Positions 48,540 through 53,710 of a stretch of 64,000 bases of DNA are shown in pieces. The position numbers and the translations under genes are program-made. Source of the DNA: Polyangiales bacterium (GTDB lineage: Bacteria; Myxococcota_A; Polyangia; Polyangiales; Polyangiaceae); assembly GCA_038231275.1 (NCBI GenBank), contig JBBRLQ010000007.1:64001-128000 (forward strand). Reading direction: 5' to 3'. Position 1 is the stretch's first letter; the number at the start of each line of letters is the position of its first letter. The notes under the pieces were generated by a model. It ran no database searches, had not been told where the DNA came from, and saw only the letters and a list, made by a program, of their open reading frames with translations.

Positions 48540-48782
48540 ATGACGAAGAAGAGCGTCCCACCCTGCATCGGTCCCGGGATGATCACACGCCGCGTGATCG
48601 TGAGGAGCCCAGACGTGGTCTTCTTGAAAGGGATCGTCGAGGCGAGCGAAGGCCTCGCGCAGGTCTTCGCCGAGCGGGGAGGCGAGCTCACCCTGGCATC
48701 TCCGGAGGGGCGCGCGGCGGAGCTCGACGCGCTCATCGACGATCTATGCCGCGAGCTCGGCGCGATGCGGCAGGATGACTGA
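48540..48782 (+). CDS. Small DUF4911-like protein
   Basis: DVVFLKGIVEASEGLA resembles DUF4911. Start uncertain (48540 or 48579). Confidence 0.6.
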   Translation: MTKKSVPPCIGPGMITRRVIVRSPDVVFLKGIVEASEGLAQVFAERGGELTLASPEGRAAELDALIDDLCRELGAMRQDD

Positions 48783-49458: not shown

Positions 49459-50070
49459 ATGGCGGCGGGAGTAGTGGCGGCGACTGCGGCGGTCGTGGCG
49501 ATGCAGGCCGCGCGCGCCGTGCAGGAGCAGAACGTCCGCATGGCCGGCGACGTTTGGGCCGCGTTCGCCGCGACGCTCGGCTTCTCACCGCCCGGCACGA
49601 CCGCGAGCGCGCTCCCGTTCCTCGCGGGCGTGCTCGACGGCGTTCGCTTCCGCCTCCGCGTCGTGCGCGACGAGCAAGGCTGGGCGCATACGCAGGCCTT
49701 CGCCGACGCCATGGTCCCGATCAGCTGCGAGGTCGGCGTCTACTCGAGCCCGGCGGGGTTTCTCGACTGGGTGAAGGCGCACTTCGAGGAGGACATCGAG
49801 ATCGGCGACGCTCCGTTCGATCGCGCGTTCGTCATTCGCGCGCGTCCGCGCGAGGCCGCGGCGTCGCTGCTCCAGCCCGAGGTCCGCGCGCTCACGACGG
49901 CGTTCCTCGGCCACGCGCTCGCTGGCCTCACGTACAAGGAGGGCGTCATCGCGCTCCAGTGGCGCGGCGTCGAACGCGATCCTGCGGTGCTCGAGCACGC
50001 GCTCCGCTTGGTCTCCCTCGTCGGGAGGTGGGCACCCTCCGAGGGCGGCTACAGGACGATGAGTTTCTAG
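49459..50070 (+). CDS. Hypothetical protein
   Basis: 203-aa ORF with EDIEIGDAPFDRAFVIR segment, preceded by TGATACGTT. Confidence 0.65.
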   Translation: MAAGVVAATAAVVAMQAARAVQEQNVRMAGDVWAAFAATLGFSPPGTTASALPFLAGVLDGVRFRLRVVRDEQGWAHTQAFADAMVPISCEVGVYSSPAGFLDWVKAHFEEDIEIGDAPFDRAFVIRARPREAAASLLQPEVRALTTAFLGHALAGLTYKEGVIALQWRGVERDPAVLEHALRLVSLVGRWAPSEGGYRTMSF

Positions 50071-52127
50071 GTCAGGTTGGAGCCGCTGTCGTCGTCGTCG
50101 CTCGTCATCTGCGGGCGGACGGTGAGGCCGCCCGGCTCGATCGACAGCGCGCTGCCTTGCTCGGGCTGCGAGTCGGGCGGCGGCGGGAAGCTCGACGTGC
50201 TCGTGCCGAGCGCGTTCTTGTGATCGAGGAAGCGCAGCGTGCCGGGGCCGCTCGTGCGCTCCAGCACCCCGCGGAGATCGCCAGGGAGAGGAGCTTCCAC
50301 GATCAGGCGGTGGCCGTGCCCCGGGTGATCGATCTCGATGCGCACGCAGTGGAGGAAGGCGCGGTCGAGGCCGTTCTTCTCTTCGAAGAAGCGGTTGGTC
50401 GGGCCGTGGCCGTACCGATCGTCGCCCAACACCGGGTGGCCGATCGCGGCGAGGTGGCGGCGGACCTGATGGGTCCTACCTTGCTCGGGGATGACGCGCA
50501 GCACGCTGTGACCGCTCGCGACCGCGAGGCGCCGGTAGCGCGTGCGCGCGGGGAACAGCTTCCCCTCCTCGCGCAGCTCGCGGGTGATGGCGCCCTTCGA
50601 CGGCGTGACGCCGCGCGCGGCGGCGACGTAGATCCTGCGCGAGGCGGCGGAGGCGAGCGCAGCGGCCCATTTGGCGACGAGCTCGGGCTGCCGCGCGAAG
50701 ATCACGAGCCCGCTCGTTCCGATGTCGATGCGGTGGATGGGGACCGCATCGGCGGCCCCGGGGAGACGCCGCACGCGCGACTGGAGAGAGCTCGCGTACT
50801 CCGCCTGCGGCGCCGTCGGTTCGTGCGGGCCCTTCTCGACGATCAAGATCTCTTCGTCCTCGAAGGCGACGCGCGGCGTGGGGATCGAGCCGCGCCGGAG
50901 GATGGCGACCGTCTCCACCTCGTCGGTGAGCGGGATCATGTCGAGCGGCCGCAGCGACGCCGTGGAGTACCCGAGGCGCGAGAGGTGATCGAGATCGCGC
51001 GCGAGCGTGTCGGGATCGCAGGAGACGTACGCGAGCGCGGTGAGCTCGAAGCGCGCGATCCACTCGCGCGCCAGCGCGCTCATTCCGCGGCGTGGTGGGT
51101 TCACGACGGCGGCGTCGAACTTCTCGCCGCGCTCGAGCATTGCGCGCAGCGCCGTCGCCGCGTCGGCGTGATCGGCGGTGAGCCGGACGTCTTGCGATCG
51201 GGCTGCGGCGCGCGCCTGCTCGACCGCCGGACCGAACGACTCGACGAGGTGCACGTCGGCCCCGGCCGCGCCCAGCGCCAACGCGATCGCGCCGCTCCCG
51301 CCGTACAGATCGAGGACGCGCACGCGCTTGCCGTGCAGGACCGCCTTCGCCACGCCCGTGAGCTCGATCAGCATCTGGTGGATGCGCTCGGCCTGCCCGC
51401 GGTGGGCTTGCACGAAGGAGCCGAACGTCGCGAGGTGAATCGACGCGCCGAGCTTGTCGGGGAGCGACGCCTCGCCGAAGAGATGAGACGTCTCGCTGCC
51501 GAGGATCTGCGGCGCCTCGCCGTCGTGGAAGTTGACCGCCACGCCCGCGATCTCCGGCATCTCGCCGATGAGCGCCTGCGCGGCGGCTTTCAGCGCCGCC
51601 AAATCTGGGACGCGCGCGCGGTGGACGACGAGCGTGACGAGCACGCGCGCGCCGTCGTCGCCTCGGACCTCACGAAGGTCCACGGCACGCAGCGCGCCGC
51701 CCCCGCTCGGATCGAACGGCGCGAGCAGTCCATCGCCCGCCGTCGTCGTCCGCGCGCGGAGCGACTCGGCGACGCGCGCGAGGACGGGGGAGAGGACCCG
51801 GCACGTCGGAATGTCGACGACCTGATGACCGCCGCCCTTCGCGAAGAGCCCGACCCTCGGTCCCGACGCGACGATGAGCTTCGCGCGCGTGCGGTAGCCG
51901 ACGATTGGCGACGCGGCCGCGACGGGCTCGGTGTACACGAGCTCGAGGGACGAGTAGCGCGCGACGGATTGAACGACGCGACCGCGCTTGAGCGCGAGCT
52001 GCTCTCCGTACGGGAGCGCGATGATCGGACATCCACCGCAGCGGTCGGCGTGCGAACACTCGACACGCTGGGTGTCCAGTGGCGCAGGCGGACCGAGCTC
52101 GGGCGCGGGGACCATCGGTAGGCTCAT
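50067..52127 (-). CDS. Fusion of RlmC/RlmD-family RNA (uracil-5)-methyltransferase and RluA-family pseudouridine synthase
   Basis: CSHADRCGGC...C Fe-S ligands, SFVQ, DLYGGSG, VNPPRRG, YVSCDPDTLARD, then FEDEEILIVEK, HRIDIGTSG, GRTHQVRRH, GHPVLGDDRYG, FLHC. Start could be 52115. Confidence 0.92.
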   Translation of the reverse strand: MSLPMVPAPELGPPAPLDTQRVECSHADRCGGCPIIALPYGEQLALKRGRVVQSVARYSSLELVYTEPVAAASPIVGYRTRAKLIVASGPRVGLFAKGGGHQVVDIPTCRVLSPVLARVAESLRARTTTAGDGLLAPFDPSGGGALRAVDLREVRGDDGARVLVTLVVHRARVPDLAALKAAAQALIGEMPEIAGVAVNFHDGEAPQILGSETSHLFGEASLPDKLGASIHLATFGSFVQAHRGQAERIHQMLIELTGVAKAVLHGKRVRVLDLYGGSGAIALALGAAGADVHLVESFGPAVEQARAAARSQDVRLTADHADAATALRAMLERGEKFDAAVVNPPRRGMSALAREWIARFELTALAYVSCDPDTLARDLDHLSRLGYSTASLRPLDMIPLTDEVETVAILRRGSIPTPRVAFEDEEILIVEKGPHEPTAPQAEYASSLQSRVRRLPGAADAVPIHRIDIGTSGLVIFARQPELVAKWAAALASAASRRIYVAAARGVTPSKGAITRELREEGKLFPARTRYRRLAVASGHSVLRVIPEQGRTHQVRRHLAAIGHPVLGDDRYGHGPTNRFFEEKNGLDRAFLHCVRIEIDHPGHGHRLIVEAPLPGDLRGVLERTSGPGTLRFLDHKNALGTSTSSFPPPPDSQPEQGSALSIEPGGLTVRPQMTSDDDDSGSNLT

Positions 52128-52234
52128 CGTATACCTTCGTCGCCTCGGACGAAGAAAGCGTACGCGCATCCCCACACGAACCTACCCGACGAACGTGTTT
52201 GGCGAGGATGGCGCGCGGGCGATACTCTGAAGCA

Positions 52235-53710
52235 GTGTCGGAGGCCGTGCCCAGAATCGGACTCCCGTCTCCGGGAGACGTGATCGACGAGAAATACCGG
52301 ATCATCCGGTCGATCGGCGAGGGCGGCATGGGGCACGTGTTCGAGGCCGCGCACCTGCGGATGGGACAACGCGTCGCCATCAAGGTCCTGAAGCCCGCCG
52401 CCAGCCAGGCTCCCGAGGTCCTCTCGCGGTTCGATCGCGAGGCCCGCGCGGCGGGGCGCCTTCGCGGGGCTCACAGCGCGCGCGTCATCGACGTCGACAT
52501 CACGCCCGATCACCTGCCGTACATGGTCATGGAATACCTCGACGGGCACGATCTCCAGACGGAGCTCGAGCAGCGTCAGGTGTTCCCGGTCCTCGAGGCG
52601 ATCGACTACGTGCTGCAGGCGTGCGCCGGAATGGCCGAGGCCCACGACATCGGCATTGTGCACCGCGACCTCAAGCCGTCGAACCTCTTTTTGTGCGACG
52701 ACGGGGACCGGCGCATCGTCAAGATCCTCGATTTCGGGATCTCCAAGATCCTCGACGAGGCCTCGAAGCTCACCTCGACCGAGCTGACCGTCGGGACGCC
52801 GCTCTACATGTCGCCCGAGCAGGTTCGGTCGGCGCGCACCGTCGACGCGCGGACCGACATCTGGGCCCTCAGCATCATCCTGTTCGAGCTCTTGACGGGC
52901 AGGCCGCCCTGGGTCGGCAGCGGGCCGTCGGTGGCCGCCGCGATCGTGACCGATCCTCCTCCGCCGCTCTCCGAGTTTCGAGGAGACATTCCGCCAGGGC
53001 TCGAAGCCGTGCTCGTGAAGGCGCTCGCCAAGTCCGCCGGTGAGCGGTACCTCGACGTGTGCTCGTTCGCCGACGCGCTCCTGCCGTACTGCGCGAGCCC
53101 CACCAGCCTCGGCCGCGCGTCGCTGGAGAGCGCGCGTCGCGCCGCGCAGAGCGGGGTGTCGCTGATCAGGATCGGCAACCGATCGCCGGAGCTCGCGAAC
53201 GCTCCGACCGTGCTGAGCATGCCGAACGGCGGGGTCGCGGAGGTGTCTTCGGTGCCCGCGAGCGTTTCCGAGCGGAAAGCGGCCGTCACGACCGCCGGAT
53301 GGACGACGGGTTCTGGGCGGCGCTCGGCCCAGCGCACGCGCCTCCTCTTCGGCACCGCGCTCCTCGTCGCGGTCTCCGCCGTGGCCGTCGCGGTCTCCGT
53401 TGTCGTGCTCGCTCGGAAAGCTCCGCGGCTCTCGGCGACGGCGGAAGCTTCGAGCCTCGCGGCCGTACTGCCGCCGCCGCAGCCGATCGCCGAGCCGCCG
53501 CCGCTCGCGTCGTCCTCGCTGCCCATCGCGCTCGCGTTGCCCGCGCCCGTGCCGTCGGGTCCATCGTCCGCGAAGCCTGGTGTGGGAACGACGCGGCCGG
53601 TTCGACCCCCGCCCACGCGCGCGCCGACAGGGATCGCGTCGAGCCCTCCTCCGGTCCTGTATCCGCCCCCGTCGACGTCGCAGAAGCCCCCTCCGCTCTA
53701 CATGCCGTGA
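52235..53710 (+). CDS. Transmembrane Ser/Thr protein kinase
   Basis: GEGGMG, VAIK, HRDLKPSN, DFG, GTPLYMSPE, TM helix, Pro-rich tail. GTG start after TACTCT. Confidence 0.92.
   Translation: MSEAVPRIGLPSPGDVIDEKYRIIRSIGEGGMGHVFEAAHLRMGQRVAIKVLKPAASQAPEVLSRFDREARAAGRLRGAHSARVIDVDITPDHLPYMVMEYLDGHDLQTELEQRQVFPVLEAIDYVLQACAGMAEAHDIGIVHRDLKPSNLFLCDDGDRRIVKILDFGISKILDEASKLTSTELTVGTPLYMSPEQVRSARTVDARTDIWALSIILFELLTGRPPWVGSGPSVAAAIVTDPPPPLSEFRGDIPPGLEAVLVKALAKSAGERYLDVCSFADALLPYCASPTSLGRASLESARRAAQSGVSLIRIGNRSPELANAPTVLSMPNGGVAEVSSVPASVSERKAAVTTAGWTTGSGRRSAQRTRLLFGTALLVAVSAVAVAVSVVVLARKAPRLSATAEASSLAAVLPPPQPIAEPPPLASSSLPIALALPAPVPSGPSSAKPGVGTTRPVRPPPTRAPTGIASSPPPVLYPPPSTSQKPPPLYMP

Follow-up and report, generated by a model that had tools for sequence, protein, structure and literature searches.

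A conserved fusion of a RumA/RlmC-class uridine methyltransferase and a TruC-like pseudouridine synthase domain in a Polyangiaceae-type myxobacterium, with a putative RNA-docking role for the synthase

In the window, which here means the whole analyzed stretch of 64,000 nucleotides of Polyangiales DNA, we identified a single gene joining 2 RNA-modification domains, and comparison with its relatives confirmed that the predicted product, from a myxobacterium of the Polyangiaceae/Labilithrix type, is a real and conserved RNA-modification enzyme with two domains. Motif and profile comparison identified the N-terminal part as a predicted SAM-dependent uridine-C5 methyltransferase of the RumA/RlmC/RlmCD class, with four cysteines of the Fe-S type and no TRAM domain, and the C-terminal part as a predicted S4-less RluA-family pseudouridine synthase whose nearest relatives are TruC-like, not RluA. 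By alignment, neither half of the fusion protein lacks any of its catalytic motifs, and the same applies to its close relatives. We give somewhat better than even chances to a joint reading in which the synthase domain would act as a docking or specificity module of the methyltransferase, pseudouridine formation would be accessory, and the target, by elimination, would be hairpin 35 of 23S rRNA.

The gene lies in a single open frame at 50067..52175 on the minus strand, 702 aa from a GTG at 52175 (ORF listing). The ATG at 52127, with GAAGG 7-11 nt on its 5' side, gives a product of 686 aa (Table 1), and the gene call in the database begins at 52115, four codons downstream of this ATG, for 682 aa. 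The preliminary description had reported one uninterrupted ORF with both catalytic sets intact and a junction near 50890; the ORF listing and the alignments to the E. coli enzymes bear this out, with the linker found at that position. A long C-terminal helix (residues 616-636) forms the end of the synthase domain, and an acidic tail similar to the predicted disordered one of the fusion is present in close relatives. The gene is flanked by one convergent and one divergent gene, and its neighbors are unrelated (an NAD_binding_4 reductase, a DUF4911 protein, a Ser/Thr kinase, and 2 proteins without a Pfam match). A promoter scan limited to the sigma-70-like type found none for the fusion gene.

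Table 1. Position in the window of the fusion gene and of the predicted parts of its product
Feature	Coordinates	Strand	Residues, location, and basis
Fusion CDS including stop	50067..52127	minus	686 aa; stop at 50069-50067
Predicted RumA/RlmC-type methyltransferase, N-terminal and central domain	51363..52070	minus	residues 20-255; alignment with E. coli RlmC and RlmD
Methyltransferase cysteines	C24 at 52056-52058, C30, C33, C109 at 51801-51803	minus	within residues 20-255
Predicted SAM-dependent uridine-C5 methyltransferase catalytic domain	50892..51362	minus	residues 256-412; PF05958, alignment, fold match
DLYGGSG	51291-51311	minus	residues 273-279
VNPPRRG	51084-51104	minus	residues 342-348
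YVSC, with predicted nucleophile Cys370	51018-51029	minus	methyltransferase catalytic domain
Predicted general base Glu405	50913-50915	minus	methyltransferase catalytic domain
Linker GSIPTPR (7 residues)	50871..50891	minus	residues 413-419, between both domains
Predicted S4-less RluA-family (TruC-like) pseudouridine synthase domain	50220..50870	minus	residues 420-636; PF00849, alignment, trees, AF2, fold
HRID, with predicted catalytic Asp468	50724-50735	minus	synthase domain
RRIY (Tyr500)	50628-50639	minus	synthase domain
GRTHQVR	50460-50480	minus	residues 550-556, synthase domain
LH	50349-50354	minus	residues 592-593, synthase domain
Acidic low-complexity C-terminal tail, predicted disordered	50070..50201	minus	residues 643-686; AF2 pLDDT <50

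The relatives search scored 8000 candidates and returned 1254 proteins at E<=1e-3. The best 120 of these 1254 matches were all 673-736 aa long with 96-100% query coverage, and in their precomputed Pfam annotations PF00849 was present in 120/120 and PF05958 in 115/120. The form with a full-length tail was identified in 26 of the 301 sampled genomes of the phylum, and single-ORF forms also occurred in independent genomes, some of them complete or near-complete. In the set of close relatives (n = 121, window protein included), the Asp motif was kept in 120 (HRID in 82, HRLD in 14, QRLD in 19, and five other variants), G-x-x-H-Q-[IV]-R in 117, VNPPRRG in 118, and CX5CX2C in all 121. Further, Asp468, Arg530, and His558 were among the invariant columns of an alignment of 34 sequences with identities as low as 34%, which, with the Asp motif in 120/121, indicates purifying selection on the synthase active site in this subclade. 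Within the fusion's own subclade, the synthase site is clearly constrained, and the tail there is more than a docking module.

The m5U methyltransferase family PF05958, of the COG2265 class, matched residues 258-411 with 30.8 bits (gathering cut-off, 23), and no TRAM domain was matched in the fusion protein by Pfam at E<=0.01. Only 23 residues precede the first cysteine, and residues 1-13 are disordered in the AF2 model, in which the N-terminal and central domain (residues 20-255) has a pLDDT of ~90. In the alignment, C24, C30, C33, and C109 fall on the Fe-S cysteines of RlmC and RlmD from E. coli, and all four were invariant in 34 relatives; this agreement is consistent with a [4Fe-4S]-type site holding a putative cluster. 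Cys370, Glu405, DLYGGSG, VNPPRRG, and F238/Q240 of the uracil-binding F-x-Q were invariant columns in the comparison with E. coli RlmC, RlmD, and TrmA. The motifs that the preliminary description had given for the E. coli enzymes were correct for K-12 by alignment (VNPPRRG in RlmC, LDPARAG in RlmD, VDPPRSG in TrmA), as was its account of a TRAM-less methyltransferase with VNPPRRG.

E. coli RlmC (RumB) is the 23S rRNA m5U747 methyltransferase. Like it, the fusion is TRAM-less, begins at the cysteine cluster, and has four cysteines, VNPPRRG, an SC nucleophile, and a Glu base; unlike the fusion, RlmC has no C-terminal synthase domain, and the identity between the two is only 23%. The best NCBIfam model for the fusion was an RlmC model aligning end to end over residues 23-412, at a score far under its cut-off, and all RlmC models stayed below their equivalog cut-offs (NF002910, 167.4 vs 558; NF002909, 142.2 vs 553; TIGR02085, 79.3 vs 429.5; NF002913, 55.9 vs 537). 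The RlmD model TIGR00479 scored 151.4 against a cut-off of 183.55, with an alignment that starts at model position 55 and lacks the TRAM part. With E. coli RlmC as the query, the fusion was the top match in the genome, weakly so (61 vs 59 bits), making a weak reciprocal best match; the genome also encodes a separate TRAM-bearing RlmD-like paralogue (contig C2) and TrmFO.

Of the description of the methyltransferase as RlmC-like, the architecture and the NPPRRG motif stood, but membership of the RlmC clade was unstable. E. coli RlmC joined the tail-bearing, TRAM-less group in a 71-row tree built with a mixture model (SH-aLRT 81) but shifted to the TRAM-bearing side in a 34-row tree, where the AU test (LG+G4) gave p 0.416 for its placement elsewhere. 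This placement hangs on one long-branched reference, since the RlmC relatives recovered were only Enterobacteriaceae sequences at >=83% identity, and such sequences cannot divide the long branch of RlmC. NPPR[RK]G was also present in TRAM-bearing paralogues and is therefore not diagnostic of RlmC. Among solved structures, Streptococcus pneumoniae RlmCD (PDB 5XJ1, 5ZQ0; m5U747/m5U1939) was the best relative by sequence (107.8 bits over residues 29-412) and also the closest by fold (5ZQ0, TMt 0.78); unlike the fusion, it has an N-terminal TRAM and no synthase domain. According to PMC6235398, the residues with which RlmCD recognizes U747 are not conserved even in RlmC.

In the C-terminal half, PF00849 (pseudouridine synthase) matched residues 427-561 with 70.6 bits (gathering cut-off, 26.8), and HRID with Asp468, Tyr500, and GRTHQVR were located by alignment with E. 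coli RluA, TruC, RluC, and RluD. No S4 domain was matched by Pfam at E<=0.01 in the fusion protein, in agreement with the earlier account of an S4-less synthase. The match to TIGR00005 (RluA subfamily) spanned only model positions 73-295 and, at 119, did not reach the cut-off of 192.7. E. coli RluA, which makes tRNA Psi32 and 23S Psi746, shares with the fusion synthase the lack of S4, a common fold (PDB 2I82, TMt 0.80), HRxD, the Tyr, and GRxHQxR. The assignment of the domain to RluA itself was not supported: on the RluA model NF007543, it scored 47.5 bits against a cut-off of 286, at the bottom of the genome's 8 RluA-family paralogues (the others, 54-90), in tblastn with E. coli RluA it ranked 7th of the 8, and its loop after 'RGVTP' is ~14 residues shorter than that of RluA in the alignment. 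In the tree, the domain instead clustered (SH-aLRT 93) with TruC of E. coli and with a TruC-like paralogue from the genome itself, encoded on contig C37, and in the AU test RluA as the sister had p 0.077 and TruC p 0.43; a sister position to RluA thus appears disfavored, though not formally rejected.

TruC makes tRNA Psi65. Like E. coli TruC and the C37 paralogue, to which it is 42% identical over residues 450-626, the fusion tail is an S4-less RluA-family catalytic domain. Unlike the stand-alone E. coli TruC, it sits behind a methyltransferase, has a shorter loop after RGVTP, and reached 78 bits against a cut-off of 328 on the TruC model NF008321; a tree of the C-half alone did not resolve the TruC affinity.

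The AF2 model of the fusion had a pLDDT of 87.4 and a pTM of 0.85, and this pTM alone supports a predicted single rigid body made up of both halves. No PDB entry spanning both halves was found in the fold search (best TMq 0.52). The model of a form retaining only half of the tail had a pLDDT of 91.2 and a pTM of 0.90, with the half-tail folding against the methyltransferase.

Across the wider family, the methyltransferase site was always retained, whereas the synthase site was often mutated or the N-terminal half of its domain deleted. From clusters at 50% identity, the 150 representatives closest to the methyltransferase half were sorted by tail type. Only 38 combined a complete tail with canonical xRxD; in 14, the Asp was retained and the Arg gone, 27 had a full tail with the motif lost, and 38 had the C-terminal half of the tail only. 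A further 5 had the N-half only (fragments), and 28, mostly fragments, had no detectable tail. In the HMM alignment, R..D was present in 59 of 110 rows, and on a methyltransferase-only FastTree the motif state changed at least 30 times among 155 tail-bearing rows, a count of independent losses that depends on this tree and on how motifs were called and could be an overestimate. Even within the host family, the Asp was missing from two proteins (L025, HAMG; L030, FDLA). In a tree of the shared C-half, full tails grouped together with 8 half tails (SH-aLRT 88), which points to a common origin of both. Half-tails escape Pfam detection, so the current annotation of the proteins that carry them names nothing beyond a RumA-like methyltransferase.

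Of the 26 genomes carrying full-tail forms, 23 had a TrmFO match; among the 16 genomes that carry the main half-tail clade there was 1, and family f15, home of the 2 distant half-tail forms examined, gave 0 of 26. A role of the half-tail form as a TrmA substitute was considered and rejected: the absence of TrmFO tracks the half-tail, but in family f21 no TrmFO was found in any of the 10 sampled genomes, of which only 2 carry the half-tail form, and the association is therefore clade-level and not convincing.

The retention of the methyltransferase site alongside the frequent loss of the synthase site suggests that the conserved role of the tail is probably RNA docking, and putative pseudouridine formation appears to be an additional function that this lineage has retained. 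In stand-alone enzymes, RNA-docking modules are TRAM on RumA and S4 on RluC and RluD. The synthase domain would occupy the place of such modules and dock RNA for the methyltransferase, so that a single binding event would present the RNA to the Cys370 site for m5U and, in this lineage, would also offer a nearby uridine to the Asp468 site for Psi. Docking would then be the long-term job of the tail, with pseudouridine formation as an accessory retained here. As reported in PMC5449589, an RluC/RluD chimera modifies rRNA unspecifically, and appended domains set the specificity of pseudouridine synthases. A more catalytic version, which we hold tentatively and at clearly less than even chances, is that the synthase was recruited in place of TRAM and is still catalytic here, with m5U and Psi placed through one binding event on neighboring uridines of a single RNA loop, such as Psi746/m5U747 of 23S hairpin 35, and has become a dead or half-deleted docking module in most other lineages; if true, the family would form a natural series from a bifunctional enzyme to a pseudoenzyme-guided methyltransferase.

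The weakest step of the docking-module reading is the target. The hairpin 35 loop of 23S rRNA (U747, possibly with U746) would be the leading candidate by elimination, because other m5U and Psi sites already have candidate enzymes in the genome: TrmFO for U54 (518 bits, above cut-off), the RlmD-like paralogue for U1939, and the TruC-like paralogue for Psi65 (196 bits). No paralogue in the genome reached the cut-off of the NCBIfam RlmC or RluA models, and RlmCD, the best relative of solved structure, methylates U747 and U1939. The loop GUUGAAAA (G745 U746 U747 G748) was identified in the 23S rRNA of four fusion-bearing relatives, the check covering relatives only, as the window's genome has no assembled 23S rRNA. 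It was also present in one relative without an intact synthase domain, and the loop is therefore permissive, not discriminating. Further, m5U methyltransferases readily shift targets, which makes the elimination argument weak; a RumA-like archaeal enzyme is described as acting on tRNA U54 (PMC2528175), and the report on YfjO/RlmS and m5U620 indicates that new lineage-specific m5U sites are still turning up (bioRxiv 10.64898/2026.04.17.719261). The main rival target would be the tRNA T-arm, and as TruC acts on tRNA, the predicted kinship of the synthase to it argues against rRNA; a new lineage-specific site may be a further candidate.

The preliminary description had proposed coupled modification of adjacent hairpin-35 nucleotides, with m5U747 made by an RlmC orthologue and Psi746 by an equivalent of RluA, which we consider unlikely as a whole. 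The proposal draws on the RlmC-like TRAM-less form with VNPPRRG, the RlmC model as the top NCBIfam match with its weak reciprocal best match, the genome's want of another RlmC-like or RluA-like candidate above cut-off, the enzymes already at hand for U54, U1939, and Psi65, the loop conserved in the four relatives, and the RluA sister position that escaped formal rejection. It conflicts with the lowest score of the 8 on the RluA model, the shortened loop, the trees favoring TruC, and the unstable position of E. coli RlmC. The synthase is dead in many relatives while the methyltransferase persists, so coupling of the modifications cannot be the family's conserved rationale, and adjacent flipped bases cannot occupy both sites at once unless the sites act in sequence.

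We rate as similarly unlikely a T-arm enzyme in which the TruC-derived domain docks the T-stem, the methyltransferase makes m5U54 or acts on tmRNA, and intact forms add a T-arm Psi. Such an enzyme would fit the grouping of the tail with TruC and the TruC-like paralogue, the occurrence of half-tail forms almost only where TrmFO was not found, and the activity on tRNA U54 described for RumA-type enzymes (PMC2528175). The genome, however, has both TrmFO above cut-off and a separate TruC-like gene, so both T-arm functions would be redundant, and TrmFO accompanies most full-tail forms. Phylogeny confounds the TrmFO association, which covers few clades and breaks down in f21, and the TruC affinity is not resolved on the C-half alone; in addition, delta-Proteobacteria are described in PMC7912444 as using TrmFO for U54.

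An enzyme active only in its methyltransferase, in which the synthase serves purely for structure, RNA binding, or chaperoning and its motifs have simply yet to decay, appears very improbable. In its favor, many relatives have lost the catalytic motif, the two host-family members among them, and a truncated tail still folds against the methyltransferase in the model, but the Asp and G-x-x-H-Q-[IV]-R motifs of the close relatives and the invariant Asp468, Arg530, and His558 speak against it. We give virtually no credence to an assembly or gene-calling artefact joining two adjacent genes, for which no evidence was found, a case that the preliminary description had named as refuting its own reading and that is itself refuted by hundreds of independent full-length relatives from different sources and one-ORF forms in complete or near-complete genomes, alongside a 7-residue linker without a stop or frameshift and an AF2 model that is a confident single body.

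Both enzyme classes, m5U methyltransferases and pseudouridine synthases, are textbook. The preliminary description knew of no characterized enzyme of this architecture, and full-text literature searching likewise found no paper describing a methyltransferase-pseudouridine synthase polypeptide; databases name the fusion proteins after one half or the other. E. coli RlmKL (YcbY), a 23S rRNA methyltransferase described in PMC3367195, is a precedent in carrying two rRNA-modifying activities in one polypeptide of ~700 aa; it joins two methyltransferases, whereas the present fusion joins a methyltransferase and a pseudouridine synthase, with the second activity decaying in many relatives. A second fusion in the genome (contig C8), conserved in Polyangiaceae-type genomes, has an RluA-family S4-less synthase followed by an RlmI-type (PF10672) methyltransferase, with the domain order reversed relative to the window fusion and an unrelated methyltransferase family.

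What is new here is the family-wide retention of the methyltransferase site against the frequent loss of the synthase site. The series of intact, point-inactivated, and half-deleted synthases is a natural experiment on how an enzyme domain loses catalysis and becomes an RNA-recognition module. Should the two sites act on the same RNA, the fusion would offer a compact system for studying the order and substrate sharing of two base-flipping enzymes. If hairpin 35 at the exit tunnel is the target, the modification may, speculatively, bear on macrolide and ketolide binding in these antibiotic-producing soil bacteria.

The fusion gene lies in a minus-strand open reading frame without interruption in the ORF listing of the window. 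The ATG at 52127, with GAAGG 7-11 nt upstream, gives 686 residues, and the public gene call on the same DNA starts four codons downstream (682 aa). The Pfam search identified an m5U methyltransferase and a pseudouridine synthase domain, with neither TRAM nor S4 matched in the fusion protein. Each half was aligned with E. coli K-12 enzymes from NC_000913: C24, C30, C33, and C109 fall on the cysteine columns of E. coli RlmC and RlmD, the methyltransferase half contains DLYGGSG, VNPPRRG, Cys370 as the YVSC nucleophile, and Glu405, and the synthase half contains HRID (Asp468), RRIY, GRTHQVR, and LH. The preliminary description of a single ORF with both catalytic sets, lacking TRAM and S4 and joined near 50890, was thus borne out by the ORF listing, Pfam, the alignments, and the position of the linker, and the motifs it gave are right for E. 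coli (RlmC VNPPRRG, RlmD LDPARAG, TrmA VDPPRSG).

Structure prediction with 34 aligned relatives gave a pLDDT of 87.4 and a pTM of 0.85 for the full fusion protein, which is modeled as a single rigid body with predicted disorder at residues 1-13 and 643-686 only. Ends similar to the latter segment occur in close relatives (proteins P0003, P0019, P0034, and others). A fold search found no PDB entry spanning both halves. The adjoining genes, a kinase and a DUF4911 protein, are unrelated to the fusion gene, whose layout is monocistronic, and nothing evident ties these ordinary neighbors to RNA modification.

Coordinates of the fusion gene, its parts and neighbors, and a second fusion of the same genome (window positions unless a contig is named)
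Feature	Position	Strand	Remarks
Open reading frame of the fusion gene	50067-52175	-	
PF05958 m5U methyltransferase	residues 258-411 of fusion protein	-	Pfam, over gathering score
PF00849 pseudouridine synthase	residues 427-561 of fusion protein	-	Pfam, over gathering score
Linker GSIPTPR	50871-50891	-	between methyltransferase and synthase halves
C-terminal end of fusion protein	50070-50201 (residues 643-686)	-	acidic, Ser/Pro-rich, ends ...TSDDDDSGSNLT
Ser/Thr protein kinase	52211-53707	+	PF00069, divergent from fusion gene
Small DUF4911 protein	48540-48779	+	downstream of fusion gene
Second fusion, contig C8	253049-254989 (L007:280-2016:-)	-	outside window; RluA-family synthase, then RlmI-type methyltransferase
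C8 fusion, synthase	residues 21-172	-	PF00849, S4-less, QRLD motif
C8 fusion, SAM methyltransferase	residues 326-531	-	PF10672, RlmI-type

The methyltransferase-synthase architecture is real, conserved, and uncharacterized. A word-indexed search matched 1254 proteins at E<=1e-3 among 8000 scored candidates. The best 120 of these were 673-736 aa long with 96-100% query coverage, carried precomputed Pfam matches to PF00849 (120/120) and PF05958 (115/120), and came from assemblies of NCBI, JGI, ENA, and Logan; the few named ones are labeled Polyangiaceae, Labilithrix, or Deltaproteobacteria MAGs. Annotations among these 120 named a single half ("pseudouridine synthase," "methyltransferase," or "23S rRNA (uracil1939-C5)-methyltransferase"), with both activities named in only two JGI annotations. 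In a phylum sample of 301 genomes, the window's genome included, 26 (loci L019-L044, one cut by a contig end) encoded the methyltransferase with a full-length tail behind it in a single open frame. Full-length relatives from many sources and these one-frame forms rule out an assembly artifact. In genome G238, an intact fusion (L035) occurs alongside a paralogue without TRAM or tail (L076, a 417-aa open frame), so such tail-less forms exist beside the fusion and do not take its place.

Many seemingly stand-alone methyltransferase matches of other families had a tail of 130-200 aa, invisible to Pfam, that matches the synthase domain's C-terminal half in alignments, lacks HRxD and GRxHQ, and keeps a family-specific T-x-RFF-x-EK-x-GL-x-RPF-x-H stretch. 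Such half-tail RumA-like loci in other genomes of the phylum include L045, L048, L051-L057, L060, L062-L065, L068, L081, and L085, and structure prediction for one half-tail form (pLDDT 91.2, pTM 0.90) gave a confidently folded truncated tail (approximately residues 380-497). Among the full-length tails of the phylum sample, HR[IL]D was present in 15 and QRID in L022, five had the Asp without the His or Arg, the Asp was lost in L025 (HAMG) and L030 (FDLA), both of the host family, and three (L042-L044) were degenerate. With the methyltransferase half as query, exhaustive searching of 1.84 billion cluster representatives yielded 473 matches at E<=1e-30, and the best 150 were classified as full tails with canonical xRxD (38), with Asp present and Arg lost (14), or with the motif lost (27); tails reduced to the C-terminal half (38) or, in fragments, to the N-terminal half (5); and no detectable tail (28, mostly fragments, with two TRAM forms at the bottom). 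R..D was present in 59/110 rows of the HMM alignment, and the motif state required at least 30 changes among 155 tail-bearing rows in a FastTree phylogeny of methyltransferase columns only, a count that tree error may inflate. The methyltransferase motifs SC and NP[PA]R-x-G persist throughout the relatives. On the C-half that they share, full tails and eight half tails group together (SH-aLRT 88), which fits a single ancestral fusion with repeated later decay of the synthase. Unlike in the wider family, the synthase site is conserved within the fusion protein's own subclade, with the Asp motif in 120/121 close relatives and Asp468 invariant in a 34-sequence alignment at identities down to 34%.

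We searched the window's own genome (9.28 Mb, 94% complete) for other modification genes. PF05958 had exactly two matches, the fusion gene and a TRAM-bearing, RlmD-like gene of 425 aa on contig C2, and TrmFO was identified above its curated cut-off. Nine genes carried PF00849, eight of them of the RluA family, including a TruC-like gene on contig C37 (TruC model score 196 bits, 43% identity to E. coli TruC) as well as RluD-like and other S4-bearing genes. The second fusion, on contig C8, is also widely conserved: of 8000 candidates, 1339 matched at E<=1e-20, with both Pfam domains present in the best 120/120; its best NCBIfam models, all far under cut-off, were m5C2499, RlmK/L, and m5C1962 methyltransferases.

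The synthase half had been likened to RluA, a position that the comparisons disfavor. Its score on the RluA equivalog model (47.5 bits) was the lowest of the eight RluA-family paralogues (others 54-90), and it ranked 7th of 8 in the genome with E. coli RluA as query. The paralogue nearest to it is the TruC-like protein of C37 (42% identity), and in a 34-row tree 23 fusion tails grouped with E. coli TruC, C37, and the C18 paralogue (SH-aLRT 93), with RluA on the opposite side. AU tests of the sister position of the fusion tails gave p 0.43 for TruC/C37, 0.097 for RluC, and 0.077 for RluA (log-likelihood 10.8 lower), short of formal rejection. In the fusion, the loop after RGVTP has approximately 14 residues fewer than its counterparts in RluA, TruC, RluC, and RluD.

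For the methyltransferase half, the proposed identity with RlmC found mixed evidence. This half is TRAM-less and shares motif IV exactly with E. coli RlmC, and the top NCBIfam model was one for RlmC, aligned end to end, although the 167 bits scored fall far short of its cut-off (558); the C2 paralogue matches RlmC models in its C-terminal domain only. In tblastn searches of the genome, E. coli RlmC found the fusion gene best (61 versus 59 bits) and E. coli RlmD found C2 (121 bits). Identities to the E. coli enzymes were 23% (RlmC), 26% (RlmD), and 22% (TrmA), and NPPR[RK]G was also found in TRAM-bearing paralogues of the phylum. E. coli RlmC shifted between trees: on a long branch, it joined the tail-bearing and TRAM-less group in a 71-row tree (SH-aLRT 81) and fell on the TRAM-bearing side in a 34-row LG+G4 tree (82), and its placement with TrmA, RlmD, and C2 was not rejected (AU p 0.416). 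The best solved relative, by sequence and by fold, is S. pneumoniae RlmCD (TMt 0.78 to 5ZQ0, the U747-loop complex), whose residues reaching U747 are described as not conserved in RlmC (PMC6235398). Together with reports of tRNA U54 methylation by an archaeal RumA-like enzyme (PMC2528175) and of species-specific m5U620 formation by B. subtilis YfjO (bioRxiv 10.64898/2026.04.17.719261), this indicates that targets shift within the m5U methyltransferase family, a warning for target assignment.

The best-supported account is a methyltransferase with a TruC-like synthase domain as a built-in docking module. The tail would be an RNA-docking module appended at a place comparable, in spirit, to TRAM on RumA and S4 on RluC/RluD; the reported loss of specificity in an RluC/RluD domain chimera (PMC5449589) indicates that appended modules matter. 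As the module would still be catalytic in this lineage, the fusion protein is, from its sequence, probably bifunctional on one RNA. By elimination, the leading candidate target is 23S hairpin 35 (U747, perhaps U746), because U54 can be served by TrmFO, U1939 by the RlmD-like gene, and Psi65 by the TruC-like gene, and because none of the genome's genes scores above the RlmC or RluA cut-off. No 23S rRNA is assembled in the window's own genome. The hairpin-35 loop GUUGAAAA (G745 U746 U747 G748) is conserved in the 23S of four fusion-bearing relatives and equally in one with a truncated tail, and is therefore permissive only. In one fusion-bearing relative (L094, G275:C2:1593581-1600638), the 23S match, lower in score, spans 4058 nt (1595081-1599138) versus approximately 2960 nt in the other relatives, pointing to a large insertion, or an intervening sequence, in its 23S gene.

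A tRNA T-arm target is kept alive by the kinship of the tail to TruC and by the occurrence of TrmFO in 23/26 full-tail genomes and only 1/16 with the main half-tail clade. However, this association is at clade level and may be purely phylogenetic, in family f21 of the sample TrmFO was found in 0/10 genomes and the half-tail form in only 2/10, and published work describes delta-Proteobacteria as using TrmFO (PMC7912444). Hairpin 35 stays the leading candidate, and the proposed coupling of Psi746 and m5U747 is possible, with the synthase half unsupported as RluA and the methyltransferase half only partly resembling RlmC. Of greater interest is the natural series running from a probably bifunctional enzyme to a methyltransferase whose synthase tail is dead or half-deleted.
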